Shown: positions 5,106 to 63,400 of the stretch, piece after piece | Layout: every line of letters begins with the position of its first letter | How positions within the stretch are numbered: the first letter of the stretch is position 1 | Source of the DNA: Moniliella sp. 'wahieum' | Taxonomy: Eukaryota | NCBI GenBank assembly: GCA_003971905.1 | Contig: RSEE01000119.1 | Location: 1-64,000 of the forward strand | Reading direction: 5' to 3' | DNA: 64,000 nt | The notes under the pieces: generated by a model | Databases searched by the model: none | What the model saw: only the letters and a program-made list of their open reading frames with translations | What the model was told of the DNA's origin: nothing | Program-made: the position numbers and the translations under genes

Positions 5106-5215
5106 GGTGACCGGTGAGTACTGAGTACTGAGTGGCCTTCCGCCGGCCGCCGCCCACGCACAGGGGCAGTGCCTGCGGGACTATGCACCACGGCTTACTG
5201 GTGTGACATGTGACA
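5106..5215. repeat. TNA-palindrome heptad arrays upstream of Pal1
   Basis: GG TGA CCGG TGA GTAC TGA GTAC TGA GT (5106-5133) and TG TGA CATG TGA CA (5202-5215). Confidence 0.85.
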
Positions 5216-6925
5216 GGGTGCCCTGGCCTGCACTGGCCGACACTGGCCACGCTCGGTTGCTCACATGCACAACACGTCACGCGCCTCACGCGCCATGCAC
5301 CATGGCCAGCCCGATGGGAACCCTAGCGGTCTCGAGGGGGACACATGGGCGCATTCGCCAAGCTTCTAGCTCTGTCGCTGCCCATCCTGACGCCACACAC
5401 CAAGTGACAACCAAACGACAGCGCCTTGCTACGTCGGTGCCAAGCCCCCGTCATCCCCATCGCACAAATCCAGAAAGGGGAAAGAGCGGGAAAGCGGGAT
5501 GGGGGGCGTACTGGGTCGTCCCCTCTTTATCAAACTCCGCCATTTGCCCACATCCAAGACTGGCTGGGGCACAGTAAGTAATTGTACAATGGTACACGAT
5601 AAACCAACACCATGACCGTGTCCATGGTCCTCACAGCCAAGACGCGCGCCATGGGGAAGGGGGAGGACTGAAGCCGCCGCATCCGGGCGTAACGCTTGTC
5701 TTGGTAGCCGGGATTGAAGAACCGTTGCATGATTCCCGCCGGGTACGGCGCCTATGACGCCACATGAAACTTCGCCATGACGCGCATGACGAGGCGGACA
5801 ACCGATCTTATCTTTGATGGGCGTACCCAGGCCAGGCCGCCCCCTCAGCATTTCAGGAGTGCCCAAGCCCTTGGCGGGTCAAGGCTTGGCTCTTGGGAAC
5901 TTCCTGCTTTCGGGCGTAATTAAGGATGGATCCGAGGGTTAGCTGGAAATTGAAGCTGGGAGACTGGAATGTGGGGAGACGAAACAGGGAGAGGAAGCAA
6001 TTGCCTGAAGTGATCCATTGAAGGAGGAGGAGGCACCGAGGAGGAGGCACCAATGGACCAGGGGAGAAAGCCCACCATCTATTCTGATCAGGCATAGGCG
6101 AGTCCAAAAGGGCACAACACAGTAGAGGGGGACGGGGTGGGGTGGTAAAGACAAATAGAGGGTTGGGAGTGGCCACCGAGAAGGCAGACTTATCGCGTAC
6201 AGTAAGTGTATGGAAGCAAACGGGCAAGCTACGCTGATTTTTCCAAAATCGGAACTCTGTGCGACTTCAGACGAACAGGCAATAAAACAACTAGAAACGC
6301 TTGGGTCCGCTAAGCTCATTAGTAGGCTGTCTTCACCCGCTGCAGATAATAAGCAGCACTGCAAAAGAGTGCATGGTCTTGGTTTGCACGACCCGTCGTC
6401 CTGTCGTCTGTCATTGGAATCGACACGTTTCCGGCATCATGATTGAAACCCCCTCCTTTTGGAGCACCCTAACTGATCGAAAGGTGGTGAGAGGGGTACT
6501 CTATGGGCTTATTGTGGCCCAGCCGCCCCTCTAAAGTTGGTCATTTCGTCCTTGCTGACGCAAGTTCGTTGGGCGCAGCGCTGGCACCTCGAGGATGAAC
6601 ATGGTTGGTGCCGTGCCTCCGACTACCTAAGCTTGCAGAAGGATGGAGTGTCGACACCATCTACGGAGGTGTGGGGCCACAGTACTAGAGTGAGGGAGAC
6701 AAAAGTGTTTTGAAGCTGATCTCGTTCATCTCATCTGCGCCTGAGCTGGACAAGGGTGGCCGTTGTCTCAACATTTCAAAATACCCGGGCGGAACTCGGG
6801 GCAGGCGGCATGCCACCAGCGGGCCATTCATTCCGCCCCGCCGCAACCAGCTGATCTGTTCCTCGGCACAAACATGGGATCAAAGGGATCGCGCTGCGGG
6901 TTTCAAGCTTGCCACCACCACCGCC

Positions 6926-15029: not shown

Positions 15030-15090
15030 AGTGACTACAGTGATTAGTTGTGATTAGTAGTGACTAGTGACTAGAGTGACTAGAGTGACT
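15030..15090. repeat. TNA-palindrome array (TGA-CTAG type)
   Basis: AG TGA CTAG TGA CTAG AG TGA CTAG AG TGA CT. Confidence 0.75.
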
Positions 15091-17331
15091 CGTGGCAGGG
15101 GCTGAGGTGACGAAGTGACTATAGTATTCGAGTGAAGATTGAGCGTTGACATGTTTCCCGCGTACATGTGCATGGGAGCCACATACTCTCTACCTTCAAG
15201 CTTCACAGGGGAAGAAGGTTGGCCCGTGTGCGTTGAAAGTGTTACGCGCGTATAGCAAGAGAGAAGAGCGCAAACACAAATGCATAATGTACAGCACATT
15301 TTTATAAAGCTTTTGGCATGCCACAGTAGTAAGAAGACGATTACAATGTAGGAGGGGGAGAGAAGGGAGATTGTGCCAAGCAACGAAACAAGTTGGGCCG
15401 GTTGTACCCTGCTGCCAGTACTAGCACTGAGTAGTAGTATCGCGAAACGACGCATGGGTGTTCCTATGGCTTTCACCCGTTGTACAAGCCGAATTACATG
15501 CAAACGCCAATCTCCACCCTTGTGCACTTGCAACCACTAGTACACACTCACACGCACAGCACTAGTATCGTGACTCTAAACCTGTTACGCCATCAATGGC
15601 AGGGCTTTGAATAACCACCAGTAGCCATTGCGGCTACCCTATCCAATTGTTCGCATCAGCCTTCTTTCTACGAGACTCATTCAGCACCCCCCCCACCCCA
15701 CCCTTGCAACCTCGGCCTTTCGGCTCGATGCTGTAATAATGCCTATATATGTGCAGCGATAAAGAATCAACAGTCACAGATGCTTGTGTTTGCACGTGTA
15801 GAGCGGCATTTTATGCTGAAGTACACACGAAGTACCAACAGTGCCCGCAAATGTGTCGTCCGTCAATATGCGTCAGTCCATCTCCACATTCGTCAGAGAA
15901 TATGAGTTCTTTTGAAAGGACCAGGGGATCTCTTATTAGTTCTCACTTCTATACAATCGATGAGAGTCGGGGAACCACATCTATCCTTATCATTTTCGCT
16001 CTCTCCACATTCCAGGACCAAATAACGCTTTCTTCTCTTCTACATCATCATGATGAGTGCATTCTGAGTACTTACGCATCACCTCGTTATCGTCACCGTG
16101 TCGCCGCATTACCCGCTTCCACTCAGAACGGTAAACCATTCCCGCGCATATGAATTGGGAGAGACCGTCTTCTCCAGTTGTGCTTTTTATCATTAGTACT
16201 ATCGGCAATGTATCAAGTTCACGGCCAGATCTCAGATCTCAGACCGGAAAGACTCGCTAAAAAGTGTCACGTACGTCACACTGTACCTACTGCACTGTCG
16301 TTACCGCACCTGTACTGGATTGCCCATCCCGCTGGGTCCATCTCTTCACTGCAGAACAAAGCGCGATTATGCACATGTTGTGACGCCGGTGATCTGACTT
16401 CGGAAGATGCATCAGAGGGAGAATAAGGTTAACCTTTTCCGGTAACCGTCAACGTTACTGGATCACATGTGTCACATATCCAAACCCACTGTATACAAAC
16501 AGTCGGGGTCTCTATACTCTCTAGACACTAATAATCACTGCAGTCACTATAGTCACTCCTGTCGCTTGTCACATCGATTCCCTCTATCGCACAACCCATA
16601 TGGCGTTTGATAGCTACCAGTAGGCAGCAAGGATCGAGGTGGATTAAAGGTGACATTGTTGACGAGAAAGGGGCATGGCCAACGTCCCGTGGTACGACAA
16701 GCGCCAAGCCCCGGTATGGAAATCGGATCAAGAGAAGTCTCGAAGAATCTTCATCTTGAGGAATGAGATTAATGAGAGCAGAGGCGGACAAGGCGAGCAG
16801 TTATGAGATCCGAGATACAAACGACTACGCCTGTAGGGCGCTTGAAGCGGTATAGCTGTTGATACCGAGAGATATCATGCATTATGCATAGGCGAGAACC
16901 TTTGCGGACGAGACAACAGTCCACAGTCATACAAACGCGACGCCCAAGCCTATTTTGCGCTTGAAGCGGCCAAAGCGTTGCAGGATTCACTGAGCGCTGC
17001 GAAACGTCTCAGTGAGCGAACGGATCCGAGTGAGACCATGTGAGCACATATGCATACTGAAAAGAAGGAAACAGACGGGGTACATGGACGCGAAGCGGTT
17101 AGGAGAGAGAGCTGTTATTTCCGTGTAAGGAAGACGACGGCCGAGAGGCAAAAAAGCACGCAGGTTCCCGGGAAGAGATCCAGACCAGCGGGAAGGGGTA
17201 GGCGAGGTATAATGCCTGTTGTAGTGGGGTAGGATCGATAGACCATGATTAATATGAGCATATAGTAGTAGGGTGGGATCGAAAGACCAAGATTAATATG
17301 AGCGTATATAAGGTAAAAGTTGGGGGTGTGA

Positions 17332-18828: not shown

Positions 18829-19059
18829 GGTGGGGAGATGATGGCGAAGAGGCAGGGGGATGATCGATGATTTAAGGATTAAACGGGGTTGCGGGGGGGG
18901 AGACGACGGATGGCGGATGACGGAATGGGAGCTTGCTATGCACTGCAGCTGTGGACAGGCTGGGCACGCCATTTATGATTGCAGGCGCTGTGTAATGCAT
19001 AATGGCGCGCTGGGGTGCTGTGGGGTGCTGGGGCAGAGGCGGCGGGACAAGCATGGGCA

Positions 19060-20510
19060 TCTGAGATCTGAGATGACCGAGAGTTGCCGAGTACAAGAGT
19101 TACTAGTTACTAGTTATGAGCGCTGAGTTCAGCCCTGAGTGGGGGCTGAGGCCTGTGAGTGTACTGAGTACTCAAGTATCGAGTATACCTGAGAGTGCGT
19201 TGCTGCCCTTACGTGGCACTGAGAACTCAGACTGAGTTCTGCACTCTGACAAGTGTGGGTTGTGAGTACTGTGAGGAACTGAGTGCACATGAGAACTGCA
19301 GGAGCTGAGTACTGTGGGGACTCAACTGAGTACACAGTGTACGGAGTCCATTTGTGAGATCCCAAGACGATTTTCGATGCGGGCGCTGATCGATCTGATG
19401 CAATGTCTGCGATTGCGGTTTGAGATCTGAGACGATCAATCTATCTCAGAACCCAGGGTGTCGATAATCGAGATAATCGATAATCGATACTAGCAGACGT
19501 TCAACGTTCAGCGGCGCCCGTATACTATGAGGATGTGTGTGTGATGGTGACAAGTGTAACCGGCGGGAAGTAACTAGTAACCGGCAACTGGGGTAACCCC
19601 CGTAACCGGTAACCTGTAACCAGTAACCACAGTACTAGTAACATGTACAAGTAATCGGTAAGGTAATCGCTAATCGATAACAGGCAAGACGAGTCAGCTA
19701 GTCAGACCGGTCAAGTCAGGTCTCAAGGGCCTCAGGCGTAACGCGTAACACGCTTGCACTTGGACGACCGTCGGTAACCGGTAAGCGGTTGTAGTGGCTT
19801 TAAGCGTGTAATAAATGCAGGCGAATGAGTTATAGCCACACCTGGATCACACTGATCATCAGTGACATGTGACATGAAATGTGACACTAGTGACATGTTA
19901 CACAAACAATTCGGGCTAACCGGGCTAACCGGTAACCGGTAAGGCCGGCAACTGTGGTAACATGAACAGGTAACCAGTAACCGGCAACCGGTAACCTGGA
20001 GTAACTAATCCGAGATCTGATCCAGTTTGTTCGGCACAGTACTCTGAGTCACGTGTGACATGTGACGTGGCGCATGGGACATGCAATGGAGGCTGTGGCA
20101 TGCGTCGGCGCAATCCGTGTCTTTGGCGTTGGAAGACCAGGAAGACATTGATTGGATTGGCTTGGGTTGCCGGCGGATATCGATGGTGCAGACGGGGGCA
20201 TGGTTTTGAAACTGGGAGGGGATGATCGATGATCGATGATCGATGGAAGGGGAACATTTGAAAAGATAACAGGATGCCCGACGACGTCGAGGCTAGATGA
20301 TCTCAATGACGCGTGACGAGTGACTCCACGGTCGATGATCGATGACTTGGGGACTGGCAGCGGAGGCCGATGGCGATTGGGATGTATGTAGTGACGATCT
20401 TATCTGCTGGTGTGTATGGATGGCCGTGGCAGGCAGCCGCGTGCAAGCACGTCCCCACTCGTGCACTGGGCGAGGGGCTGCGGACAGATGGCAACATTCA
20501 ACGTTCAACT
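19060..20510. repeat. Dense cluster of TNA-palindrome arrays in the divergent HSF/RGS intergenic region
   Basis: TGA-GATC, TTA-CTAG, TGA-GCGC, TAA-TCGA, TCA-ACGT, TAA-CCGG, TAA-CGCG, TGA-CATG and TGA-TCGA arrays in succession. Confidence 0.85.
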
Positions 20511-26165: not shown

Positions 26166-26192
26166 AGATCATCGATCATCGATCATCGATCA
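26166..26192. repeat. (TCA-TCGA)n heptad array upstream of LYAR
   Basis: GA TCA TCGA TCA TCGA TCA TCGA TCA. Confidence 0.85.
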
Positions 26193-26555
26193 TGGCCGAT
26201 TGGGAGGGCCATTGGGCCTTGGGAGGACCCAGCCATCACGCGAGCACGCCACGCCCCACTCGCACGCCCACCGCCCCCGCCTCCACCACGGCCAATGGGC
26301 GCAATGGGAAGACAGGACCGAGTTGCGTGGTCGAGGCGATGGCGATCGGGAAGCACGTACTACTCTATTGCTACTATCACCCCATCCTGCGAGTGGGACA
26401 GGTGGGAATCTACTGTGCCCCGCGCTACCTTCTTCCCAACAGCCTCCGCTCCTCCTTGCCCTGTCTATGTGCTCCCCATGCCCATGCGGACGGGCGGGTG
26501 GGTTGGATCGTGGGGCGCGCGAATATACATAACGACCCTCCAACTCTCTGCACCG

Positions 26556-28333: not shown

Positions 28334-28769
28334 CGTGCCGACGAGGAGAGGCGGAGAGGGGCGATGAGGGGGTGGTGGGAGTCCGGGTGGCTGCGGCCTT
28401 CTTCTGGGCTCGCCTGGAACGGGGGGATGGATATAGGCGTTTGGCAACCGCCGTTTGAAAACTAAAGACAGACAACACGTGGTCGCAGCCGTTCCAACTT
28501 GCACCGATGCGATAGCGCGTGGTCGTGCGTTTTGCCCTGCTTTCCCAAGAGCTCAGGCGGAGCGCTGACGCGGAGCTGCCACGTGTGACTTGTGACTGGG
28601 ATGGCCAGGATCAGCGTTTGTCGATTGTCGATTGCACGTTGCCAGCGGAGCACGCGGCCAGCACATCGCTGGTCCGGCTATAGGTACCAAGGCCTAGCAG
28701 GATGGTGGGGAGACCGCAGAGAGATAAGATTGTGCCTGGATAGATTCGACCCCTCCTCCTCGCGTCTAT

Positions 28770-41086: not shown

Positions 41087-41643
41087 GCGCTGAGCGAGCG
41101 CTGACAGCTGACAGATCAGGCTGATTAATGGTTGCAACAGGTTGCAACCCATCTGCCCTGCATGTACACAGCACAGCCCAAGGCTACTCAATTCAAACGG
41201 ACACGCCTGCCAACAGGAGCGCACAAGCCACCCGGATCATCGATCACTCCCATCACTCGGAATCGATCCTGCTCTGTTCCGTTCCGCTCCGTTCCCTTGT
41301 CCAGTGTCGCAGCCACGCCGAACAGCCGCCATCGACACTCCCAGATGCACGTGTTGCTTATTACGCAGCATGATGGAATGATAATGACCCTTGTCCGTCC
41401 TCGATCTCATGGATCATCGCTCCCTAGCCTGCGGCAGCTTCAACGAGCAGTGGCCTTGAGACGTTTCCTACAACTTATACTGGACGCGTTACGTCGCCCT
41501 GACTGAGCAACTCAACCCGCTGAGATCTACAGAACGTCCGCCCGGCTGCTGACATGTGACACATGTCAATACCATCACGCATGACTTGTTCCTAATCAAC
41601 CGGTCACCGGTCACCAAACATCGATCATCGATTATCGATTATC
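41087..41643. repeat. TNA-palindrome arrays upstream of the Zn2Cys6 gene
   Basis: GCGC TGA; TGA CATG TGA; CCGG TCA CCGG TCA; TCGA TCA TCGA TTA TCGA TTA. Confidence 0.8.
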
Positions 41644-43381
41644 CGATCGTCTCTCTTCTTTCTGTGGCGCTACACTGGTGTAGTGGCGCCGGTCGCCAAC
41701 CCGGACCCTTCGGCTCTCAGATCTCATTAATCATTCCTTGCAATTCCTTTTCCTGGAGGGCAGGATAATCACGTCCATTTCATTGCGCAACCCCCGATCT
41801 GCACGCTTTTACATCAGCGACCGGTGCCACGTTCCCTGACCGGTGCCACATTCCAGCCCACCCGCATGCATCGGTGATATTATGTTCCCTCTCCAGCGTG
41901 GAACGGTGGCTAAGGTGGCGAAGGGGGAACGGCAGCTGGGGCTTCGGCCCCAGCTGACCGGGCCGTAGGCCCGGTGGTGGTCCTCCTTGTATTCTCTATA
42001 GCCCTCTGCAGCTAATGTGCAATGCAATACACCATCCCTGCCTGCTCTCTGGTCTTCTACACTTTCGGGCAACTTGTTCGACGAGTACGCAAGGCACAAT
42101 ACCATACACGGCCCAATAACAGGGAACCTCCCCTAGAAACACAGGATTCCGGAGCGACGTAAAAGAACACACGACACGCGCACGCAGGAGTGGCTTGGCT
42201 TTAAGTGCCACACAGCATCAGACCCTCGGGCCCGTCAAGGACATCGGCGCGTCATGCGCACATGGCAACGGGCTTTGTACACCCAGCGCTCACCCTCGTC
42301 TCTGCAAAAGACAGAGTTGCTGGTCTTTGCACAGCTGAAAATTCGCAATTGCCAACAAAAATGTACTTGTCCACCACAGATGGGTATTTCATCGTACATG
42401 ATGCATGAGCTACAGAGGCTAGAGCATCTTCTTGCCCTCCAGAAAGGAATATTGGAAGGAATGCGCCTGTTATGCATGTTACGGGCCGCGTTGGATTTGA
42501 GATGTTCTGATGCAAGCTAGTGTCTGCCTGCTCTGCACATGGCCAGTAATAGAGCTCGCTCCGAAGTCCAGCCCAATTTGATGATGGTTTTGGTTAAATC
42601 AGGGACGGTGGCCCGAGGGGCTATGCATTCGCGCGACAATAGTCGCGCCCCGCCCAAGCCCAGGTCGGTTGGCCTAAATACGGCCAGCCAGTTTCCCTTA
42701 CCTTTGCGAACCCCCCGTTAACGGTCACCGGTCACGGTCACCACTTACTTTTTCTCTGTTGCACCTGCGGCAACTAACCCCCTCTTCTGACGTGTCTTGC
42801 TTTCTACATCCCTATTGTATCCGTTTTCCCTTTTTGATCTAGCCTGTACCTCTGGTTGGTGGGGTTCCTTTTCCCCACCTTTCATTCACTCGATTCCCCG
42901 TACCAACGGCTTGTCACATGAGTTCCCTTCCAGCCACATTGACAGCCGCCCCTGTCCAGCCTCAGTTCTGGCAGTGTTTGTCCTCCACTGCCTCTACCCG
43001 TCCCTATTCTTAAGCGCCTAGCCCTGGAGGCTTCACAGACACGTTTTACCACGGCCCAAACGGGTGCATACACAGTCTTGCCGCACGTGCAGCCGCCTCG
43101 GCTTCATGCCTAAAGGCCTCTGCCCGTCCCTAGCTCCGCTCGGATTCACCAACTAGCCCAAGCGCCAAACTGCCGTGAGTCAACCTACCGTCTTCTACGG
43201 CATTCTACCCCACAAACCTGGGCGAGCTCCCTGCCACTATACCAGTGTGGCGCCACAGAGCCGCAGGCCCCACTGCTGTGGTGCTAGTGAACGTTCTAAG
43301 GAGAAGTACAGAGGAGGCAAAAAGAGAAGGGCGTATCAATACGACGGAGCACAACGGAAGCATCCCGGGCTGGATTAGAGA

Positions 43382-44531
43382 GGTGACCGGTGACCAGTGA
43401 CCGGTGATGTCCACATCAAACATGCTGGTGGAGGGTGCATGTGATTGAGGGCATCTGTCTTAGGCCTAACCGGTAACCGGTAACCGGTAACCTTAGGCCT
43501 TAGGCCTTAGGCCTTACTCGTTCTGGGACCTGTATGTGCCAGGAGATCGGAGACGTCGTATGAGATGGAGAGGGAGAAGCAGATAGATTGGATACGCCAA
43601 AGGACGGCCTTAAGGCTGATATCAGTACGTACACTTTCGGCAGCGGATCTCACAGATCTCACATGTCACATGTCACATGGCACATGGCACATGGTCACAT
43701 GCATGTTATGCATGTCACGCGTGACGTCATGTCAGTCACTAGCTGACTAGTGGCTATTCCGGCGTACTCGGCGGTTCAGGCTACGTAGTACGTCAGATCT
43801 CAGAAGAAATGTGCATTGTGCTCTGTGCCTCGTACGTAGAGTCTGTGTTTGCGCTCCGTTGGGTTGTTTTGGTGGCCATTGTGTCACTTTTGCTTGTTTG
43901 TTACACGACGCTGGAGTGGCGCTGGCGGATTCGCACATCCTACGTAGCCTCCATTATGCTCTTCTTCCAGCTTTGAGCTTCAAGCCTCAATTCATGCTCT
44001 ATTCAATGCCCCGTACTTGGGCCGAGTACTCCGATGCCTCGCCTCGCCTCGCCTCGGCCTCATCTTCAGTAGGGAAGCGCTAATAAAATGCTCAATGCAG
44101 TCATGGAGTTCGCGCTGACCATCAAATTCGGGATTAACGATGTTAATAATGTCAGGAATCGCCCCACCATTTTGGTCTTTTCCACCGGGTCAAAGTGCCG
44201 CCAAGAGCTACTCATATATTGAGGGCGCTCAGCTGAGCCAGAGGTACTGTAAGGGCCTTTTGGCCGTAGGCCTTAGGCTTTATCGGCTGGTTGAACGTTG
44301 AGTACTGAGTAGCCACGCCAATGCGTAATGACTAAATGACACTGCGTACGGAGAGTACGTGAGTACTCTGAGTGGTACTGGGTACTGACTAGTGGCTCGT
44401 GACGCGTGACTATAGTGACTATGCTGGCGCCTCAGCCGCTCCGCGCGTTGGACGCCCAGCACAGCAGCGAGACCACAGATCCGACATTCTCACGATCTCA
44501 CAGGTGGAACGGCGGCCGATGATCGATGATC
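43382..44531. repeat. TNA-palindrome arrays upstream of the PH-like gene
   Basis: TTA GGCC TAA (CCGG TAA)3 CC (TTA GGCC)3 TTA at 43460-43516; TCA-CATG arrays at 43646-43750; GT TGA ACGT TGA GTAC TGA GT at 44290-44310; TGA CGCG TGA CTATAG TGA at ~44400-44418. Confidence 0.9.
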
Positions 44532-49800: not shown

Positions 49801-52800
49801 GAAGAGAGATGCAAGAGAAAATGTGTATCAAACCACTGATATATTAGCGGAAAAAAGTAGCAATGAGGAGAGGTTGAAGGCCGGGAGAAGAATTGCAAGA
49901 GTATGAAAGGAAATCGGATCGGTAGCTCGGAAAAACCCCAGCAGAGGAGCGAGTGCCCGGAATGTTATAAGCAATTTCCTCGGGGGGGGGGAGGTCGACT
50001 AGGCTTTCGTGCTACTGCCTGGGAGTGGTTCTCCCGCTCGACAGGGGGTGGCCTTGTACTCTGCCACACTGCAAACTAACTGGAGAGGCACTGTGGCTTG
50101 TCTAGCAAGGTGCAAGCAAAACTGACTTTGGAAGTGGGAACTTGACTGTCCATTTCGTACTGTGTGGGGAACGGAAGGAGATAGGCAGGGGAGAACCCAG
50201 ATAGATGTACAATGACTACAACGGAAAATATAGGCACGACCATCGTCATTCCCTTGCGACGTCTTATGAGTCTAGGCTCATAGGCATGCCTGACGGCATG
50301 ACGGCAAATGAGATGACGTAATGCCTACCAGGACAGGGGTAGCCGTATCCGTGATCAACAGAAGAAGGGTGCAGATGCAAGCATGCCTCAGGTACGTCCA
50401 CATCAATGTGTTCTCTAAACTATAAAAAGGGATATTATTATACCCGGAGCTTGCGTATAAGGAGCCAACATATCTAAGTGTACATCTTATTCCGTATCTC
50501 CTTCGCTCGTCTTCTTGGTCATTTGCCAGCAAGTACTCATCATTTCCGTCCCTATCTCGGTATGTCGTTAATATTCATAGAAAACGTGTAACCGTCATCG
50601 TCACACTTTCGTTATCTTCCCGGATGGCTCTGCTATATATGTTCTGCTCTCTGAGTTCCTGTGTCTCATTTCTATCAAACGATGCTCCAATTGATTGCTA
50701 CCTTTCCGTATTCCGTCTTTCTTCTGGCTTTCTGTCTCGTTGTTGAGCTTAGCGTTCGCCTCCTGGCGCGCTTTTGCCTCTTTGATCCTTCGGTGCCGAT
50801 TATGCGTTTCTCTTTGTCTCATTCCCCGTGTGTTGCATATAGTAGCCTCTTCCCTCTACCATATCCCTTCTTTGTATGGAGTTGTTTTGCCTGGCACAAT
50901 ACCGGACTTTCTATACTCATCGGCGTCGTCTTACCTGGACCTTACCCTCGCGCGTGAAGAGAAGACCAGATGCCTTAGGGATGGGGAGGATGAGAATGCG
51001 ATCAGTTGAATCGCTGTAGTACAGACAGAGAAGAACCATAAACCAAGGGGAACAGGGCCTATCCCAAACTTGGGTTCACACCACCTGCATGTGGCGACTA
51101 TATATAACCTCGCGCTACCTAGGGTACGGGACCGGATGGCGAGAGCCGGAGGGTCCTGATATCCTGGCGATCCCCCTGGTTCCTTGACCCTGGTGGCGCC
51201 CCCAAGTAACCCCCGCAAGATGAACGGTTAGGTTTAGACGTAGCGTTCCCCCTGTCCCAGCCTTAAGCTCTGCCAATGAAGTGGAACCAGGGGGGTGTAC
51301 GCTCGACAAGCATCAACATTTTTCGTTTACCGCCCTCTCCTCCTGTGTTTTTTTCTCTGCGACCAACACCGCGTCTCCATATTCAATTGTTTGTACATAT
51401 CTTCTTGCTCGGGATCCACAACAGAACCAACATCTGATTTCGCGTCCAGTTGATTACAGGGTAACACTACTATAGAAACAGAGAAAACAGCAACCAATCA
51501 GATGAGCAAAAAAATCAAAAGCTCCTTAGATGTGTCTTCTGACCTGTGCGCGCATTTGCCCTTCCCCCCGCTCTTACTCCCCCTCCTACATTTTATTCAG
51601 GCGACGGAAGGGAGATCTGACCACTCTCTCACACTTTCAAACGGTAAGATTGCTTCACCTGGTATATGTAGTACGAAAGGCCATACAACTACCCTTTGGA
51701 TGTTAAACGTTAACAGCAAATTCCTTTTTTTCTGCTGTTGTAGTTGAACGCTCATGAACTCGATGTGGACATATGAAATTGCATGGAAGACGTAAGTCTG
51801 GCTTTGAGACACATCACGATCTCTGTTGGAGTTCGTTCGCTCTTCGACCCACAGGAGAGGCGGAAGATCCACATCCACCAGCGTTCTCGGTGAGTACTCA
51901 GATCGATCAGACTGAGTACTGAGTACGCGTGAAGAGTACCCCCCGGGCCCTTGCATTGAAGGCTGGTGGGCAGATCATTAATCAGTCCTCAAGTATACTC
52001 AGTACTGAGACTCAACACTCTCAGCGCCTCAGCTAGTAGTAAGCAGAGCAGCTATCTTGATCAACCGTAATCACTTCGGATCACTCACTAGCGTGGCGAG
52101 TCACTTTGCTGGCTACTAGCAGTCACTAGTCAGAGCTATATTTGTAGCCACTGTGAGATGTGAGTTTGGCAGTTGGCTAGGCGTGCGCGTTTGTGGAGAA
52201 ACGCGCGGCGGAGACAGGCTGGGCAGATCTATGGGGGGGGCTTGTCAAAGAGGAGACGGCAGGGGCCGACGGATGCAGGATGCATGGAGGGAGCGTGTGT
52301 GGTCGATGGGTATTTTGCACAGACGAGGGGGTTCCGGCAGGCGGTGGTGTGGCATGAATGCGATGCGTGATGGTTCTACGCAGGATGCTTTTTCCGATGC
52401 CTCCCGAATGAAAGCGGAGTGGGCACATCTGGATTTCCGATCTAAGACCTACTGGAGTATCGAGATTATCCGGGAACTGCAACACATCACGCACCACACA
52501 TCATGCATGCATCATGGAGTGTGCCTCTGTGCGCAGGCCAAGCGCCGGGGATTTTTTTTTTTTTTTCAACACGAGCGCACGCTTGGCGCACAGGCCGCGC
52601 ATGCGCTTTCCCAAAGAGTGTGGGGTGTATTCCGTGTGTGGCGCACGTGTGGTGCGCTTGGCTGCTTATTGGAATATGCGCCGCTTCCGCCTCTTCTGCC
52701 TGCTTCCGCTCTCTGCGATGGAGAGCTGGCGTCGCTGAGCCTGCTGAGCCTCAGCGTAGCCAACATATGGTCTTGGGGGCATACGTGGTACGCGTTACGC

Positions 52801-55952: not shown

Positions 55953-58900
55953 CTAGCGGGGCTCTGGTTCGGGGTGCAGATAATAAAACGGCACGGCTTT
56001 GCGCATGGCCGAGCGAAAGGCCGGCAAGAGACGGCGGAGATGGAGCATGTGCGGCGGTGGAGCAGTGACCTTGTTGGGCGTGTAGTGCAAATCGCTCACC
56101 TCGGGTTCTGCGAGCAAATGTTGGCCACAGGGATCGAGCATCGTGAACCATAAGCCGGGTCGGCCTTGGCTTCGGTTCCGCGCGCCTCGTTGAGCAGCGG
56201 CCGGTATCCATGCGCGTGGTGGCGGGGCAATGCCCGCGTGCGCTGCTGCCAATGCGCCCGACCCAGCGGGCCGACGTTGCTTGGCATACTGAACCAGCAA
56301 ACGCTCCATGAGCAAATCTGTGTCCGCTGCGTCTTGGCCAAACTCCCGAGACGGTAGACAGGACCGACCTAGCCCCGCAGGAGGGTTGGCATCGTCATGC
56401 GCCAGCAGCACGTTCTTCCTTCCCACCAGCTGCGCGCGCACTTTTTCCCATAACGCCCAGCTTTGTAGCTCGTCCAGCTCCTCCACAATTTCCGCCACTC
56501 GGGCGTCTTGGCCGACTGGGCAATGAGGCGCTCGCAGTTCACCTCGAACCGACGCGCATCTTTGTGGTTCGGGCGCAGTGGGTCCGACGTAGAGGTGGCC
56601 ATAAAGTTGCACTGCAGTTGGCACCAGGTCAATAGGGGATATGAGATGCCTTCGACCATGACCATCTTGTGGGCAAAGTACCAGATCTTGTCGTAGTGCC
56701 GCGTCGCCAGGGCGATCCACGCATGGATGGCTATATAGAGAGGAAGAGGGATGTCAGCTTTTCTTCCTACACAAAGAGTGTTCCATCTAAAGGAGGGGGG
56801 AGCAACGCACAGTTATCTTTGCCTTGACGGACCTTGATGAGATCGTCCACACCTTTCTGCAAGTCGCCCAAATGAGCGGATAAGTCGGTGTGCTTGGCAG
56901 CGAGATCGACAATGGGGTAGAGCACGCCTTCAAGGAATTCTTTGATCAACGTTGGCACCAACGCGCCATCGACCGTGTCGATAATCATTTGAGCGTCCCG
57001 TTTGAGAAACGCTTCGCGGAGAAGAAGTTTGAGCAAGGCAAAGTGATACGCATCTTGGGCCTCCATCGCGCTGAGGCTGGGAATCTTTCCATCCCGTTGG
57101 GCCCGATGCGTGGAAAGGAAGGCCTGGTTGGCATCCTGGCGCGCTTGCTCACTGTACCGGGTCGAGGTGGGGGGGTAGGCGGCTTCCAGATGGCCACGGT
57201 ACTTGGACAACGCAAAGGCCCGCTGCATTTGCAGCACATGATCCGCTTCCTGCTCGCTGAGTTGGGGCCCGTGGTTGGAGGTGAGAAGGATGGTGGTCAG
57301 AATGTCGTCGCCCTGGTCGCGCGTGTTGTCCGTCATGTTCACTCGCTCCATACGTCCTGCGTGCTTGACAAACGACAAGACCTTTTGCACCAACGTTTCT
57401 TCTTGGATCGCCTCTCTCAAAGGCTTGATTCCCTCCTTATCGATAATTTTCATCTCGCGATGAAAGACGTACCCAACGATGCGCTGAATCAGACTTTTGG
57501 CTCCCCCCGGTCGGGCGAGAAGGATGGTGAGAAAGCCTTGGATAATCACGCGCGCATTCGCTACCTTGAGCGTTTGTTTGGCTGCCCACCAAGGGAAGAG
57601 CGTATTGACGCCTTTGATCAAGCGGAAGATGGTATCAGCATGAGGACCCTGGGTCAGCAGCTTGCGCAACCATCCAGCCGTTGTATCCCGGAGAAACTCG
57701 GCCACGCTCTGAAACGGGCGGGAAGCTCAAAGATGGTAGGAATGCTGTGTAGCGCCACGTATCCCTCAACCCGGCTGGCTGTTCAATGATGCGCTCCCAA
57801 AACGCATGAAAGTCCGCGTTGATTTGACGAACGTGCTGCCGGCCCGCTTCCACTGGTGGTAAATCCGTTCTTGCCTCTCCCGGCTGCCTTCACTGTTGAG
57901 GTCCGAACCAGGGAGGAACAAGTTGTTGATTGTTTCTTGCATCTTGGCGTCGATCCGAGCCGGTCGGTCCAAGCCACGCTTGACCGTTCCGCCCCCCACG
58001 CTTTTCCCATCCCCCATGCTTCAGATGCAGGAGGTCCTCGGCCGGGGCCTGCCAGCTCCCCCTTCCCGCGTACTCCCACACCACGTGCAAAGTAGTGCCC
58101 GACAAGGCCAACAAGAAGAAGGAGAATGTACCGAATGGGGGGCATCTGGGCTCCCTCGAGGGAGGAAGACAAGCTGCGAACCGCGACCTCGTCCAGAAAC
58201 GGTTGCACCCGCGAGTGCCAGAAATGGTCGGGCAGGTCGCACAGAAAGGGAATGGTGAGCAGACTGGTGTGCATCATCTGTTCAAACAGGATGGGATCTT
58301 GAATGCGCTCCGTGTGCTCCACCAAGTCACTTTTGGCTCGGGAAAAAGGGTCTTGGCTGAATCCCTGGTTGGCCGGGCCAGCACGGGTATACTCATTGTC
58401 GAGTTCGTTGCGCAGGGTGCGCATCTCAGGGCGGCGGGAACTGAAGGGAGGCCCGTACCGTGTCAAGGCACCCACCTTGAACATCTGCTCACTTTCGTCG
58501 GCCATCTGAATGTTGACCAGGGCACGAACGAGGTAATGCCGTTGCTCGGGAGTCAAAATGATCTCGCTTTCCGTCACACCTTGTTTGCGTGCCTCAATGT
58601 CCAGTGCCATGTAGCGCGGCGTGTCAATCTTGCGCGGTGTGGCAGACACGGATCCGCGCTCGAGCTGTGCGTGCGCCAAGCGCGTCTGCAGCAGACGCAG
58701 TTGCGCGTCTGGGTCGGCAGCCACGATGGACTCATAGTCGCTCTCGCTGCTCGAGTCACTGGCAGAGTAGCTGGTGGGGCCGGATCGGGGGGAGGAGGAA
58801 CGGGCAGAGCGGTGGGTGCTTGTTGACTGGGAGCGACCGCGATCCGGCTGGGCGACATGCTGCTCCAAGTCGGTTTGGAGCGCATCAATGCGGCGGCGTT

Positions 58901-59007
58901 CGGCGGCAATGATGTCGGACAGCTCGGGGGGCAGAGCAGCAGCCCAGGGGTCCTGGGCGCGGAGAGGAAGGGGCTGCTTGGGGCGGGTGCGTCGAGGGGG
59001 GTGGCAT
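55953..59007 (-). CDS. PXB (PX-associated) + DUF3818 protein, YPR097W/Lec1-related
   Basis: LTPEQRHYLVRAL..GALTRYGPPF..FWHSRVQPFLDE (PXB-like); FPWWAAKQTLKVANA..LLARPGGAKSLIQRI..DLSAHLGDLQK (DUF3818-like). Intron ~56810-56733. Start inferred. Confidence 0.8.
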
Positions 59008-59326
59008 GGGCGCGGTGGGGGTGGGGGTGGTGGGCGCGGGGGGGGGTGGAGAGCGGTATAAGGGCGATGCGTGGGCGGCGTGCGGTGCGGCTGGCGCGGG
59101 CTGGCTGGGAGAGGCCTGGCCGGGACGTGTGGGGAGGCGGCGCAGGCGGCGCTTTGCGCGCACTGTGCCTTGTCTTCCCCTCCCCGCCGCCCCGCCCAAA
59201 ATACCCCGCCTTGTGCCTGCGCCTTGGGTGTGCCTTGCGCCTTGGGCCCTGCGTCGTACCGTAAGCGCCTCAGCCTTCCCGCTGCAAGCGCCAGCGCGGC
59301 ACCGCAGCCGCCGCGTCTGGGATGCG

Positions 59327-59466
59327 ATCGATGAGTGGTGACGTCGATCGATGACAGGTGACTGTCACGTGTCACGTGCCCCATATGATCGTCATCGTCA
59401 TCCGTCATCCATCATCCATCTGCTTCACCCATCATGCATCAACGTTCAACGTTCAACGTACGTTCA
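59327..59466. repeat. TNA-palindrome arrays upstream of the PXB gene
   Basis: CA TCA TGCA TCA ACGT TCA ACGT TCA ACGTACGT TCA AC at 59430-59468, plus TCGA-TGA motifs. Confidence 0.85.
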
Positions 59467-59774
59467 ACCCCGCCGCTGCCCCGCATTTCGTCTTTCTCCG
59501 GCGCACTTCGTCTCGCGCGCACCCCCACCTCAGCGGGGCGCATTCAATTGCACGAGCAGCCTCACGAGGATAGAACTATGGACACACACGCTCTCTCCCC
59601 TGTCCCAGCTGATCCATCCAGGCAAACCTCCGTGCCCACGCCACACGCCACGAACGAGATGGAATCACCAGGACAAAGACGAAGACGAAAACGAAGACAA
59701 CGCCGCACAAGAAGCGAGAATAAAAAAGGGACCAGCCACTAGGGTGAGGACAAGGCGGAAGGAAGGAAGGGCAG

Positions 59775-60222: not shown

Positions 60223-60401
60223 GGGCGCGGGAGCAAGTCAAGTTGGAACGGGTGCCAATCGGATATTGCTAGCACGTGAGGGCCAGTAGGAATCCAAGGG
60301 GGACGGATCCAAGGGGGGCGAGTCGGAGTGGAGGAGGTTAGTGGTTAAGTGGGGCACGGAACCTGGGTCGCATGTCACATGTCACAAGGCATCACGAGTC
60401 A

Positions 60402-63400
60402 CTAGTCAGCGCGGTCCCGAACAACGTGCTGGGGTACACACCCACAGAGAAAAGCGGCGGATCTTTTTGCCCCGCGGCGCCGCCGGAGCTGAGCCGCGGT
60501 CCGGCCCGGGCGACGGTGGCGGCGGGGAGGAGGAAGGTTGGGAAGCACGAACGGGATCGGGATCCATCCTAGTATCGCCTTCCTCATCTGCTCCTTGTCC
60601 TTGTTCTTGTTCTTGTCCTTGTCCTTGTCCTGTTTCTTGTCCGGAATCTTATCCATCGCCTTGTCATGACGAGACGGAGAAACGGTGGCCAACGAGGCAG
60701 GCGAGATCATTCTCCCAAACCGGTACAACGCACGCTTGCGACCCGACTTGTCACGCCGTGCGGAAGGTGCGGTGGACGGAGACGCTTGCTTCGTACCGGG
60801 GCCCGGGGGGGGGCGGCGGGGTGGCCGTCTCGGGGCCGGTGGCAGCTGTGGTGGGACGGCGGACGACGACGTTTGGTCGTTTGGGGTAGGACCAGAGGGG
60901 GCGCCTCCTTACCTGCTTCCGCGGCCGGGGCCGGGGCCGGAGCCGGGGCCGTGGAGGTCAAAGCCCCATGCCCTGCCTCGCCCTCTTCCTCCTCCTCCTG
61001 AATCGCGGGCGGGACCACAGCTGGTTCCGATTTGCGCAACCGGTATGTCGGGGTCTCTTGGCCGTTTGACAACGCGAATGTGGGCAGCATACAGCGCTTG
61101 CCTGGATTTGCGCAGACGGCGGGCGGTCGAACTGTACACGCGCGGCGGCAAGGTGGACAGGCGTCCACCGCCGTTTTTCTCCCCTCGCCTTCGGCCAAAA
61201 GATCCGCATCCACATCGTCCAACAAGTCCCAGTCGTCGTCCTCGTCCAAGGGGAAGGAAGGATGAGCACTATGGTGCGAGGAATGGATGGAGGTGTGAAG
61301 AGAGCGGGAGCCTCGGCGGGACGGAGAAAAGGTAGCACTTGGCACCACATTCGGGTTGTCCAGACTCGCTTGCGCGGCGGCAGCGGCAAGAAACAATGTC
61401 CGTCGGTTTGCGCGCCGACACGCTGCGCCCCAACCGTCCCGGTTGGAACGGGGGAAGAGTCGTGGACTCGGGTATCTGTGCCTCCTCCACATCGGAGGCA
61501 GGGAAAGGGGCCACCTCGGCGGCAGGGGGAGGCGTCGAGAGGGAGAAGCAGAGTCGGGCATGAGCGGGGTGGTGGGAGCAATGGGCGAGCTGGCGGATGC
61601 AGTGGGTGCCGTGGGCGCCACGGGGCCTGCCTCAGAGATAGACCCCTGCTGCGAGTGCCGACCCGAGGATGGACGCCAGCGGAAAGTGAAGGCACGCTTG
61701 ATCGAACCGGAAGTAGAAAGCGTAGGAGGGGGTTTGCTCGTGGGGCTTGTGGGCCGGGAATGAGAGGCATGATGGGGCATGCAGGAGGTGAGGTAGTGAT
61801 CGCCGTTGTATTTCCCGTTGTAGCAGTCGTGTTACCCACGTCCGAGATCAAGGGGTCGTTTGTCCATCCCGAGAAGCTGGCTGACGAGTCCAATCCCGTT
61901 CCGACACTAGGTCGAGGTCCAATGGCTACTGGCGCAGAAGTGGGGGGGACGGAAGCAGAAGTAGGCAGCGGATCGACTGCCACAGGCACCGAGGTGGTTG
62001 GGCTGGTTTCCGATGCATTGGCTTGGCGGTCCAGCTCCTCCAGTACTGCATAAGCCAACAGCGCTGACGCTTGGTACTCTTCAAACTCGGCGGCCTCGGC
62101 AAGGGACCACCTGACCGACAGGGGATGGGACGGGGCGCGGACTCGGGCGGAGTGTGGACGAGCGGTACATAAGCCGGCACAGGCGAGGTCGGCGAGGAAG
62201 CCGAGACTTGCTCAGGTCCGCCAGAGGACTGGCGAGAGGATTCCACAATCTTGACTGTCGTCCCAGCCGGGGCGGGAACCCAAACGGGGGTGAGCGAGCG
62301 ACGAGGAGACCGAGGGCGCATTGGGTTTGTGACGACTTTGGGAGGAGACGATGGTCGATGCATGCCTTTCAAGGCTGCTTGGTGGGTAAGACGGCGTGGT
62401 ATCCAAGACTGGGGCGGGAATGGTGGTGTCTACGGCGGGGGGGGGGCGGGTGGGGGCCTCGTCCTCAATCGCGCTGACCATGGGCGGCGCCAGTGATGGC
62501 TCCCCATCATCCATACGCTCTGATGCAATGCTCGGGACATCAGCCGTTGAGCGTTTGGAAGGCGGCGACGAGTCTTGCTGAATGGTGGATGGTTCGGGAG
62601 CGGCAAGAGCCACACCAGACGAACCTGGTCCAGCAGAAGTAGGGGTCGAGCATACCTGAGGCGAGGGATGGGACGCCGCGGGGGCGTGGGCATGGGGAGG
62701 CCAGGCCAGACGGTGCCGATGGCAGGGGTTCTGCAATTGAGGCCATCCCGCTCGTTGCCGCATGACTCTGTTCTCTGTCAATCAGAGCCGAAGCTGTGGA
62801 GCGCGTAAGGGACGAGGAGGGTAAGCGTCGACCGGTCCATGATCCCGGACCGAAGCTGTAGCAAAGTCGGTAGCGACCACCCCACTGGACAGCGACGGGC
62901 TAGTCTCGGGCACGGCTGGTGCGAGTAGCCGGTGTGGTGGCCCGCGGAGTAGGACGGGCGGTGCTTGCTTTCCTCCTGTAGGAGGGAGATGGAGGTGTTT
63001 GAGGACGAGCCGTATACTGGACTCCCATGGAGCGGGCCACGAGGCAACGGTGCATGCGACTGCAACGAGCGGTTTTGAGCGGCCTCGTAAGCAGCAAGGC
63101 GAGCCTTCACGCTTCCTGGGCATATGCTGGTTTGGGTGTATGCCTGCTCCTTCATTCCAGGGAATGAGAAGTACCAGCGGAAAGGTCGTGTGTGGGCTCT
63201 TGCACCGTGGGCAACCCCACGAGCGCGGGGGCAGAGGGAGACGATAGCGATGACTGGTGACTGTGGGTGTGGTGGTTCAGCGTTCGAGCCTTGCGACAGA
63301 TCTCTTTCCCACTGGACTTGCTCGAGGGAATCGAGGGACAAGATCCATGCTTTCGCTGGTATCCATGCTCTGTTCTCGGGCATGCCCGCATCCGACATGC

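Follow-up and report, generated by a model that had tools for sequence, protein, structure and literature searches.

The non-coding DNA of the window, that is, the whole stretch of 64,000 nucleotides that was analysed, carries a real and very strong pattern in which T-N-A triplets (TNA) are separated by short palindromes. The whole of this grammar is a single rule: a site ab-TNA-cd becomes ab-TNA-cd-d'c'-TNA-cd, or the left-side mirror form. The dinucleotide beside TNA serves as the template of the palindrome, and TNA, its middle base N included, is directly duplicated. No published description of a TNA-palindrome grammar was found in the literature. On balance, we favour the view that these units are footprints left by the excision of a cut-and-paste element, now gone from these sites, which would have made 7-bp target duplications at nnTNAnn and left hAT-like flank hairpins, nicked roughly 2 nt away from the tip and then rejoined.

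A preliminary description of the pattern had proposed comparison with control triplets and shuffled sequence, and in these counts TNA alone is enriched. The whole window has 94 matches to TNA-[4-bp palindrome]-TNA where 100 dinucleotide-preserving shuffles give 6.2±2.8, and the 94 10-mers fall into 76 in-phase groups. Put around a palindromic core, the other 15 XNY triplets stay at 0.6–1.7 times expectation. Neither TNA with a non-palindromic core (102 vs 92.9±9.7) nor the hexamer formed by T, a 4-bp palindrome and A (173 vs 172) is enriched. In a test set of four ORF-poor stretches (14,174 bases in total, each shuffled separately), TNA gives 69 matches against 2.31±1.80, and ANT, CNG and GNC, with 1, 4 and 3, are at expectation. 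The 11-mer N-A-xy-y'x'-T-N-A-xy, with A as its second base, is found 105 times on both strands (expectation 1.2); the versions with C, G or T there number only 4, 2 and 0. In 79 of the 94 matches both triplets share the middle base N (1.7±1.0 same-N matches expected in the whole window), in 7 it is complementary and in 8 otherwise unlike. Since N is duplicated directly, the unit is a direct 7-bp repeat and not a 10-bp palindrome.

Fifteen of the 16 possible 4-bp palindromes serve as cores, AATT being the sole one missing; the 14 reported previously were indeed not confined to one or two types, and TTAA, absent from that list, is present at 41717 and 51975. The suggestion that any even palindrome would do was overstated. 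Core length 4 prevails (94 vs 6.4) and is the rule, cores of 6 bp (8 vs 1.6) and 8 bp (4 vs 0.3) are minor by-products, and lengths 0, 2, 10 and 12 show no enrichment when all N combinations are counted in the whole window. Differing cores are kept in phase within an array, as had been noticed, more often than expected (26 vs 9.7). Run lengths have their mode at 12–13, isolated 12-mers of less than two copies occur, and runs end in two classes, 0 or 2 nt past TNA. The longest arrays reach 3.9 identical units. Other 7-mers are also exactly duplicated, and among the 56 period-7 runs, 27 are of a type other than TNA plus 4-bp palindrome.

The examples cited in the preliminary description are all present within a few bases of where it had placed them. 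The loci are as follows.

5106..5135, two-core array GG-TGA-CCGG-TGA-GTAC-TGA-GTAC-TGA-GT (TGA-CCGG starts at 5108); left core from flank GG, right core from GT; its sequence suggests the ancestor GG-TGA-GT
5202..5215, TGTGACA x2, CATG core at 5204; exact duplication of a palindromic 7-mer centred on TGA
5776..5791, CATGACG + cg + CATGACG; non-palindromic, both copies intact, spacer the reverse complement of the final two bases
15058..15090, AGTGACT with periods 7 and 9 (7-mer + ag + 7-mer), CTAG core at 15061; spacer equals the predicted P nucleotides
16226..16243, (CAGATCT) x2.6 array of the TCA+GATC type, GATC at 16232; first unit without T
16535..16560, AGTCACT + at + AGTCACT; spacer equals one P nucleotide per side; includes the 6-bp cores CTGCAG and CTATAG
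16762..16777, AATGAGA + tt + AATGAGA; non-palindromic, spacer the reverse complement of the initial two bases
18861..20507, densest field, 25 matches in 22 in-phase groups (GCGC 19117, TCGA 19474, ACGT 19501, CGCG 19739); flanked by an HSF-domain ORF (17897-18463, minus) and a DEP/RGS ORF (20588-22660, plus)
19915, GCTAACC-gg-GCTAACC, inside the densest field
20221-20245, (GATGATC) x3.6, inside the densest field
26167..26193, (GATCATC) x3.9 array of the TCA+TCGA type, TCGA at 26169
28584..28597, TGTGACT x2; exact duplication of a non-palindromic TGA-centred 7-mer, 0 added bases
35115, 35281, 41100, 53758, 59363 and 59396, the other six exact non-palindromic duplications
35195, AGCT core
37364, TATA core
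41599..41643, neighbouring arrays TCA+CCGG and TCA/TTA+TCGA
41715..41735, two-core array TC-TCA-GATC-TCA-TTAA-TCA-TT; both cores flank-derived
43382..43407, GGTGACC x2 and a second TGA-CCGG-TGA
43460..43516, (TAACCGG) x3.7 adjoining (CCTTAGG) x3.7, GGCC at 43460; both grow from a common CC, and the ancestor may have been TAA-CC-TTA
43648..43694, TCTCACA + ga + TCTCACA (non-palindromic), then (TCACATG) x3 and the variant (GCACATG) x3
44290..44310, two-core array GT-TGA-ACGT-TGA-GTAC-TGA-GT (TGA-ACGT-TGA-GTAC-TGA from 44292)
47860, ATAT core
52499..52516, CATCATG + catg + CATCATG; 8-bp core formed by P2 added twice, which is what retention of both overhangs from opened hairpins would give
59430..59468, two-core array CA-TCA-TGCA-TCA-ACGT-TCA-ACGT-TCA-ACGTACGT-TCA-AC with a terminal P2+P2 unit, ACGT at 59432; just upstream of a PX-protein ORF (57786-59411, minus)

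Dependence on the flanks is seen most directly at non-palindromic targets, where one-sided events number 45 against 0.37 expected and the next-best triplet gives 5. The pattern as a whole indicates a specific mutational or enzymatic process, one of the possibilities raised at the outset. The core matches the left or right flank in 42 of the 51 single same-N loci (chance about 12%). The cores are thus set by the two bases flanking TNA and are not free, which speaks against the proposed structure-defined, sequence-flexible element class. All four two-core same-N arrays match the rule on both sides, and the left-derived core stands left. A TNA-centred 7-mer is followed by the same 7-mer after 0, 2 or 4 nt in 32, 13 and 2 cases, compared with 0.03, 0.17 and 0.15 in shuffles. 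The 2-nt spacers are the predicted P nucleotides in 10 of the 13 TNA-centred repeats, including four with non-palindromic 7-mers, whereas control 7-mers lacking a central TNA have spacers that fit this prediction in only 14 of 72. Both 4-nt spacers are P2+P2. Exact duplications of non-palindromic TNA-centred 7-mers number 7 (0.12 expected). The putative nnTNAnn targets show a weak preference for G before T and C after A.

The near-absence of the pattern from coding sequence, first judged by eye, is confirmed by counting: Pfam-supported ORFs (11,052 bases) hold 1 of the 94 matches, compared with 16.2 if matches were uniform, and this lone match has a complementary N. ORF-poor DNA carries 69 matches in 14.2 kb, and scar density is about 4–5 per kb of non-coding DNA. 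Arrays are densest in non-coding DNA next to genes, divergent promoter regions included, and no positional rule relative to the ORFs was seen in the window. One-step variants are in excess by 10.6 over the two N sites, by 18.3 over the four core sites, and by 6.9 and 1.2 at the inner T/A. Decay is about equal at N, core and inner T/A positions, with about 5 excess variants per site. Such equal decay argues against a palindrome-reading protein or structure and for neutral scars; the idea of a protein that reads shape or spacing is accordingly not upheld. The scars are neutral, and they are absent from confirmed coding sequence save for the one complementary-N match. Forms without the outermost T or A have excesses of 18.7 and 11.8, above the roughly 5 per site of simple decay.

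The rule, its specificity and its neutrality are demonstrated; the element, its superfamily and the nuclease are inferred, and could act in the following manner. A 7-bp staggered cut centred on T-N-A would allow the element to integrate into ab-TNA-cd, and N would be the same on both sides because both flanks carry the identical 7-mer after integration. Target-site duplication predicts the same N and symmetric hairpin or loop models a complementary one; the observed numbers are 79 and 7. The element would be excised by hAT/Mutator-like/Transib/RAG chemistry, with each flank closed as a DNA hairpin. A host nuclease resembling Artemis or Pso2 would then nick the hairpins about 2 nt past the tip, sometimes 0, 1 or 3, leaving the self-complementary 3' overhangs cd-d'c' at the left end and b'a'-ab at the right end. 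End joining that retains only one of the two overhangs would give ab-TNA-[cdd'c']-TNA-cd or ab-TNA-[b'a'ab]-TNA-cd. This predicted main product has a net gain of 7 bp and a flank-built 4-bp palindrome. Rarer products would keep both 7-mers with 0, 1+1, 2 or 2+2 P nucleotides, giving periods 7, 9 and 11 and the apparent 6- and 8-bp cores. Each scar would be a new TNA with perfectly symmetric flanks, whose opened hairpins are mutually cohesive. Arrays may thus grow by re-insertion and excision at scars, probably with a contribution from replication slippage. Confinement of scars to non-coding DNA would be expected because a +7 frameshift in coding sequence is selected out.

Certain observations count against excision footprints, among them the exact duplications of other 7-mers and the departure of nnTNAnn from the hAT target consensus. 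The dominant form needs very uniform hairpin opening together with regular loss of one overhang, and the products predicted for opening 1 nt off were found 0 and 1 times. Scar density is high for a seemingly transposon-poor window, and to account for the excess of forms without the outermost T or A, half-site targets and a 3-nt opening have to be added ad hoc. A scan of 286 ORFs in the window gave no transposase domain; a scar, for its part, would not be expected to keep the element. Nor does the window contain an insert bounded by TIRs and with a 7-bp TNA-centred duplication: three weak candidates are at chance level. No relative was found in metagenomes.

The sequence rule as such neither requires nor excludes an element, and an element-free process is an alternative to which we assign a minor chance. 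A nuclease or domesticated transposase would cut T-N-A, after which templated end joining (snap-back or template-switch) would copy the flank dinucleotide inverted and recopy TNA-cd, adding 7 bp each time. The window lacks both element and transposase, its scar density is very high, and enzymes of the PIF/Harbinger type are described as cutting at T-N-A (PMC4482050, PMC4561436). Known chemistry, however, gave no route to the product from a single break at TNA: the one-hairpin, two-hairpin and snap-back schemes that were tried yield a complementary N or a 2-nt core, and neither product is enriched (2-nt core with the same N, 4 and 22 vs 6.3 and 21.4; complementary N, 7). Non-palindromic 7-mers with P-nucleotide spacers also fit integration followed by excision, not a single cut. 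Footprints of the PIF/Harbinger superfamily (PHIS), with TNA/TWA insertion and a 3-bp duplication, are disfavoured and very unlikely, even though PHIS is the sole eukaryotic superfamily found to be reported with T-N-A targets, and PIF/Pong is described as indifferent to the middle base (PMC4482050, PMC4561436). The present duplication spans 7 bp, and excision of mPing is reportedly precise (PMC4561436). Scars made from element termini would have fixed cores such as GGCC, but 15 flank-matched cores are found and GGCC accounts for 7 of 94. If a piggyBac-like hairpin had TNA as its loop, N should be complementary (7 vs 79), and coreless TNA-TNA with one and the same N exceeds expectation only slightly (46 vs 29.8).

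Palindromic units can form slipped hairpins, and replication slippage of ordinary heptanucleotide microsatellites probably does contribute to the growth of arrays of up to 3.9 identical units. As the source of the pattern it is quite improbable: the absolute need for T-N-A is left unexplained when ANT, CNG and GNC of equal hairpin potential are at expectation, and so are the isolated 12-mers, the cores templated by unique flanks, the in-phase mixed cores, and the forms of period 9 and 11 that have P nucleotides as spacers. A matching 21-base array was found at 118 metagenome loci, none with the multi-core grammar. Slippage of a single unit had been doubted from the start, and the TNA-only, flank-templated, mixed-core arrays bear this out. 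The concentration in gene-flanking DNA could suggest functional arrays, either sites for a protein that reads shape or spacing or selected structural promoter elements. We hold this to be highly improbable, given 15 cores without a protein-readable base preference, copied from arbitrary flanks, the equal decay of unconstrained N and palindrome positions, and the lack of any positional rule. Nor is the pattern a single transcription-factor site, already thought implausible. An assembly or sequencing artefact is the least credible reading. The pattern avoids confirmed ORFs and shows graded mutational decay, and we know of no error mode that yields a flank-dependent rule with base-level specificity.

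If the footprint reading is true, 7-base scars in the non-coding DNA of a fungal chromosome end are a record of mobile DNA that was active in the past, and short repeat arrays near genes are seeded by them. It is possible, though doubtful, that no ordinary transposon left these marks and that they stem from an undescribed 'palindromising' insertion system, directed to T-N-A and active to this day. Candidates for it would be a hairpin-forming transposase, either domesticated or non-autonomous and highly mobile, or else a new superfamily whose targets are 7-bp nnTNAnn. Such a system would continually rewrite promoters in a compact fungal genome. It would make its own preferred symmetric targets, so that hotspots would be self-reinforcing, and it would be a source of a 7-bp palindromic microsatellite class and of potential dimer-binding sites.

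Among known systems, hairpin-prone or palindromic microsatellites share the fold-back tandem 7-bp arrays, but the TNA anchor, births at single-copy sites and in-phase mixed cores set the present arrays apart. Canonical Tc1/mariner footprints are likewise small palindromic scars, consisting of the duplication, a few bases, an inverted copy and the duplication; their scar bases are element termini, the same everywhere, at a TA target, whereas here they are host-flank bases in 15 cores. Elements of the hAT superfamily have short TIRs and a transposase with hAT dimerisation or BED domains. The hAT target consensus is nTnnnnAn, from which the present sites differ in that T and A are separated by one base at the centre of the 7-mer. 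PHIS (PIF/Harbinger-ISL2EU-Spy) elements share the TNA/TWA target, whose middle base is described as free and whose flanks as weakly palindromic; NuwaII, found in two basidiomycetes, has the target C|TNA|G (PMC4482050, PMC4561436). They differ in their 3-bp duplication and in precise excision via cohesive TNA overhangs, reported for mPing as TSD-derived 5' overhangs with precise repair (PMC4561436), as opposed to a 7-bp unit with flank-derived palindromes.

According to the text of PMC12730594, the hAT superfamily has an 8-bp target duplication, or 5, 6 or 7 bp in named subgroups, and the Basidiomycota families with 7 bp are hAT7 (Pucciniales) and Kyakuja/KDZ (Agaricomycotina). Both share this length with the unit deduced here, and within hAT the 7-bp unit fits the hAT7 subgroup alone. 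In the same source, hAT7 groups with fungal hAT families and with the plant families represented by Ac and Tam3, Kyakuja is described without TIRs, and the text has no occurrence of Ustilaginomycotina (PMC12730594). For hAT, Transib, RAG and Muta1, hairpins are reported to form on flanking DNA and to be opened by host enzymes such as Artemis, with end-joining footprints (PMC5499845). Two hallmarks of hairpin-type footprints are present in the window: the putative target duplication stands in two direct copies, and what is inserted between them is reverse-complementary to the adjoining flank ends. In Ac/Ds and V(D)J coding joints, as here, short flank-built palindromes are described at the rejoined donor site, between the target-duplication copies (PMC5873905, PMC5499845, PMC4561436); they are attributed to off-centre opening of hairpins on the flanks followed by end joining, and each host shows one or two prevailing forms. 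[quoted passage not shown] In contrast to Ac/Ds, with its 8-bp duplication, the unit here is 7 bp with T-N-A at its centre, opening is nearly always 2 nt from the tip, and the scars form a recurring grammar and iterated arrays across the window and not at a single reporter locus.

The 10-mer made of a 4-bp palindromic core between two TNA triplets (TNA+P4) occurs 94 times in the window, in 76 in-phase groups, compared with 6.2 ± 2.8 in 100 dinucleotide-preserving shuffles of the window. Against such shuffles, palindromic cores between the 15 other XNY triplets stay at 0.6–1.7 times expectation, and non-palindromic cores between TNAs number 102 against 92.9 expected. When four ORF-poor stretches (14,174 bases, 52.8% G+C) were each shuffled alone, which removes compositional heterogeneity, TNA gave 69 matches against 2.31 ± 1.80, and the symmetric controls ANT (1), CNG (4), and GNC (3) were all at expectation. 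Enrichment over control triplets and shuffled sequence, the check proposed in the preliminary description, is thus borne out, and the examples cited there were all located. The claimed diversity of cores also holds: 15 of the 16 possible cores are used, far more than one or two, with TCGA (18) and CCGG (12) at the top and AATT missing. The claim that any even palindrome can serve as a core has to be narrowed, since length 4 dominates (94 against 6.4), lengths 6 (8 against 1.6) and 8 (4 against 0.3) are minor, and lengths 0, 2, 10, and 12 show no overall enrichment in the window. Near-absence from coding sequence is upheld, with 1 of the 94 hits in Pfam-supported ORFs (11,052 bases) where 16.2 are expected. 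Period-7 runs of two or more full copies number 56, and 29 of them have TNA+P4 units (24 labelled so and 5 whose unit's second rotation has that form); periods 8, 9, and 10 give only 9, 20, and 8 runs. All these counts refer to a single 64-kb window.

The window is a chromosome end of about 60% G+C, with telomere repeats (CCCTAA) at its very start. The proteins it encodes are of fungal type: glyoxal oxidase, an HSF-type DNA-binding domain, a DEP/RGS protein, YIF1, mitofissin, a Macro domain, a PX-associated protein, a photolyase fragment, and Pal1. The photolyase ORF lies within 2.4 kb of the telomere, and the ORFs that overlap it in other frames point to a gene that is split or contains introns. 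The 6.4 kb at 47300–53700 have lower G+C (0.49–0.54 between 48 and 52 kb) and are rich in putative scars; they hold no ORF of at least 250 aa, and none of their 48 short ORFs has a Pfam match. This region could be a long promoter, an intergenic region, or a decayed element.

1–310: subtelomere, CCCTAA repeats followed by degenerate C-rich 24–54-bp repeats containing CCTCACC
1864–2361, forward strand: ORF with a photolyase FAD-binding domain (Pfam E 3e-47; GC3 0.91)
14922–15004: (TTTG)n microsatellite, an ordinary repeat unrelated to the scars
17221–17308: 44-bp tandem duplication, an ordinary repeat unrelated to the scars
25167–25490: long CTT/CTC-rich tract with a 35-bp repeat, an ordinary repeat unrelated to the scars

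In 79 hits (expected 1.7 ± 1.0) both triplets share their middle base N; it is complementary in 7 and differs otherwise in 8. Each TNA is thus a direct copy of the other, and the 10-mer as a whole is no palindrome. Flanking bases agree with the periodic expectation at positions ±1 and ±2 in 55–72% of groups and from ±3 onward in 26–43%, so that the pattern reaches exactly two bases beyond the TNAs. Runs end either 0 or 2 nt past a TNA, and their commonest lengths, 12–13, fall short of two 7-mer copies. It follows that the product is T-N-A-x-y-y'-x'-T-N-A-x-y (primes denote complements), that is, two copies of the pentamer TNAxy separated by the reverse complement of the pentamer's final two bases. 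On both strands together, the 11-mer N-A-xy-y'x'-T-N-A-xy occurs 105 times with A as its second base (1.2 expected) and 4, 2, and 0 times with C, G, and T; the base ahead of it is T for 77 of the 87 leftmost units.

The core sequence comes from the local flank. At 51 single loci with the same N, the core matches the left flank only in 21, the right only in 9, both in 12, and neither in 9, so that 42 of 51 show a match where chance gives about 12%. The excess of left-flank over right-flank cores on the plus strand (21 against 9) may be chance (about p = 0.04) or a bias of strand or replication direction. One-sided events, in which the opposite flank is unmatched and the target is thus non-palindromic, occur 45 times, where shuffles give 0.37; the triplets ranking next reach 5 and 4. 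Arrays that combine two different cores with the same N are flank-matched on both sides in four of four cases, with the left-derived core on the left.

5108, 41717, 44292, and 59432: two-core arrays with the same N

Each of these collapses to one ancestral ab-TNA-cd with unrelated flanks (5108, for example, to GG-TGA-GT), and the double array at 43460–43516 consists of two arrays extending in opposite directions from the common CC of TAA-CC-TTA. The key point of the preliminary description, that the core changes while the TNA and the 7-bp phase are kept, is explained by flank templating, as is an enrichment of different in-phase cores (26 against 9.7). The observation is thus confirmed, and its interpretation can be stated more sharply as a +7 insertion rule that is flank-templated and TNA-anchored.

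If left and right dinucleotides can both template cores at one TNA, the duplicated segment must be the 7-bp ab-TNA-cd, and such a unit is directly visible. A TNA-centred 7-mer followed by 2 nt and the identical 7-mer occurs 13 times (0.17 expected), and in 10 cases the spacer is the predicted P nucleotides (palindromic bases left by off-centre hairpin opening), counted as the reverse complement of the last two or first two bases or one complemented base per side. Four of the ten involve non-palindromic 7-mers:

5776: CATGACG, spacer CG
16762: AATGAGA, spacer TT
19915: GCTAACC, spacer GG
43648: TCTCACA, spacer GA

Three cases do not fit, namely two subtelomeric CCTCACC repeats and a single one at 52734. 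Control 7-mers lacking a central TNA have fitting spacers in 14 of 72 cases, which is chance level, and several of these are other registers of the same loci. Both 4-nt spacers (52499 and 59451) consist of the two predicted dinucleotides side by side, which explains the 8-bp cores. Of the eight 6-bp cores, five (CTATAG twice, GCGCGC twice, and CGCGCG) read, in our own assignment, as cd, one base per side, and ab; CGTACG, TCATGA, and CTGCAG do not fit. Exact duplications of non-palindromic TNA-centred 7-mers (7 against 0.12 expected) are weak evidence, because other 7-mers also show tandem 7-bp duplications.

Related motifs also occur. GCTCAGC, CCTGAGC, and GCTGAGC (xTNAx' cores) recur, often 8–9 bp apart, at 14820–14860, 44540–44565, 47801–47830, and 52020–52035; some fit the scheme of 7-mer, spacer, and 7-mer, and those at 44544 and 52734 do not. 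At 59363–59378, immediately within the start of the PX-protein ORF and upstream of the scar array there, 2.3 copies of TGTCACG place two E-box-like CACGTG hexamers 7 bp apart; the duplicated unit is a TNA-centred 7-mer, and its other rotation is a C...G hexamer. Period-7 arrays one base off TNA+P4 (GCA-CATG at 43674–43694, TTG-TCGA at 28618–28634, TGG-GTAC at 44374–44387, and GGA-TGCA at 52271–52284) are probably mutated founders that later expanded, in which case slippage operates without TNA dependence.

On balance, and with confidence a little above even, we attribute the scars to hairpin-type excision of a transposon with a 7-bp target duplication, a scheme that combines sequence inference with published chemistry. 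The forms match the empty donor site expected of a cut-and-paste element that would duplicate 7 bp on insertion and leave hairpin-closed flanks on excision. With ab-TNA-cd duplicated, a nick 2 nt past each tip would give the 3' overhangs cd-d'c' on the left and b'a'-ab on the right, with both nicked duplex ends stopping at TNA. If one overhang were kept and the other lost, exactly the two one-sided products seen here would result. Retention of both would give the 8-bp cores, a hairpin opened at the tip on one side the period-9 forms, and loss of both TNA-TNA, which with the same N is mildly raised (46 against 29.8). At a symmetric target the two overhangs would be identical and self-complementary and could simply anneal. 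Scarring would then be efficient where a scar already exists, which would explain the excess of both-flank matches (12 of 51 single loci) and how uniform arrays grow, to which replication slippage probably contributes. Hairpins on flanking DNA are described, in passages of PMC5499845, for hAT, Transib, RAG, and the Mutator-like Muta1, as are their opening by host enzymes such as Artemis and end joining into footprints. [quoted passage not shown]

Several other schemes were considered. Hairpins with a TNA loop flanking a TNA cut (piggyBac/PHIS-like) predict a complementary N or a 2-nt core, and are ruled out by 7 complementary against 79 same N and by 2-nt cores at expectation. Were the cores leftovers of element termini (Tc1-like), they should be unrelated to the flank, yet 42 of 51 loci show such a relation. 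For a 5-bp duplication TNAxy with P nucleotides from either end, the mirror product N'A-TNAxy is absent (3 and 7 cases), and a hairpin opened 1 nt from its tip, one side then being lost, is represented by 0 and 1 cases. A required palindromic 7-bp target is contradicted by the two-core arrays and the 45 one-sided events. Worked on paper, topoisomerase-II-like 4-bp fill-in, flap ligation, and simple snap-back synthesis do not yield the product. An element-free, TNA-directed process of break and repair is unlikely: we could not work out how a single break, processed by known chemistry, would give the product, and the simpler outcomes expected under such schemes are unenriched. Four further rivals (PHIS scars, pure slippage, functional binding arrays, and artefact) each conflict with specific counts.

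The decay of the scars bears on function. Over shuffles, one-step variants are in excess by 10.6 where N differs (2 sites), by 18.3 where one core pair is broken (4 sites), and by 6.9 and 1.2 where the inner A or T is changed, or about 5 per site against 77 intact. That the unconstrained N decays like the palindrome positions favours neutral scars over selection on palindromes; it speaks for neutrality with a mean divergence of roughly 5–6%, and against the suggestion that the element is read by a protein recognising shape or spacing. Forms without the outermost T or A are commoner than other one-step variants (excess 18.7 and 11.8); they could be half-site events, opened 3 nt from the tip with the inner T arising as the complement of A. 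Reconstructed targets show a weak extra preference: G precedes T in 0.44 against a background of 0.28 (symmetrised set), C or G occupies the N position in 49 of 63 arrays, and the 30 one-sided loci have G at -1 in 18 and C at -3 in 16.

Single excision scars normally escape recognition in genomes, since a target duplication can have any sequence; under the present reading, the T-N-A anchor and the uniformity of hairpin opening would make them countable. If the hairpin-excision reading is true, a few per cent of the non-coding DNA of this Moniliella is a readable archive of transposon excision, past cut-and-paste activity can be measured in a genome that appears nearly transposon-free, and an in vivo record of hairpin-opening position and end joining in this fungus is available. 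It would also provide a concrete source of 7-bp palindromic microsatellites and of many small promoter palindromes, material out of which binding sites for dimeric factors can form.

The reading predicts a directly searchable element family with 7-bp nnTNAnn duplications. No transposase domain was found in 286 window ORFs (140 of at least 150 aa, and 146 of 60–149 aa from ORF-poor regions, nine telomere-proximal short ORFs being left out), and no intact element with TIRs and a matching duplication was seen in the window. A scan for TIR-bounded inserts flanked by TNA, 5 bp, or 7 bp yielded 1 and 3 weak candidates, which lay at chance level or inside arrays. No public sequencing run was listed in a look-up made with 41000–50999. 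In metagenome contigs, the sole outside DNA and a negative control only, a 21-base window array used as query retrieved 119 stretches; none of the 118 loci tested has the multi-core grammar, and most have a single core, namely that of the seed. In the same kind of contigs, a search for relatives of the DEP/RGS protein gave 126 pattern matches, none of which was confirmed. A full-text literature search, its scope leaving outside most subscription journals and Repbase Reports, returned no description of the grammar.

Among known families, T-N-A targets are otherwise a hallmark of the PIF/Harbinger superfamily, for example C|TNA|G in NuwaII (sections of PMC4482050). Its member mPing tolerates any base in the middle and excises precisely, owing to the cohesive TNA overhangs that it leaves (passages of PMC4561436). 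The 3-bp duplications of PIF/Harbinger, however, fit neither the 7-bp unit of the window nor its flank-derived palindromes. In portions of PMC5751038, hAT elements are said to be ubiquitous among fungi, and Ustilaginomycotina are characterised as compact and poor in repeats. Transposon families with 7-bp duplications are reported from Basidiomycota in parts of PMC12730594: Kyakuja is found in Agaricomycotina, and hAT7 of Pucciniales clusters with other hAT families of fungi as well as with those of plants that Ac and Tam3 represent.
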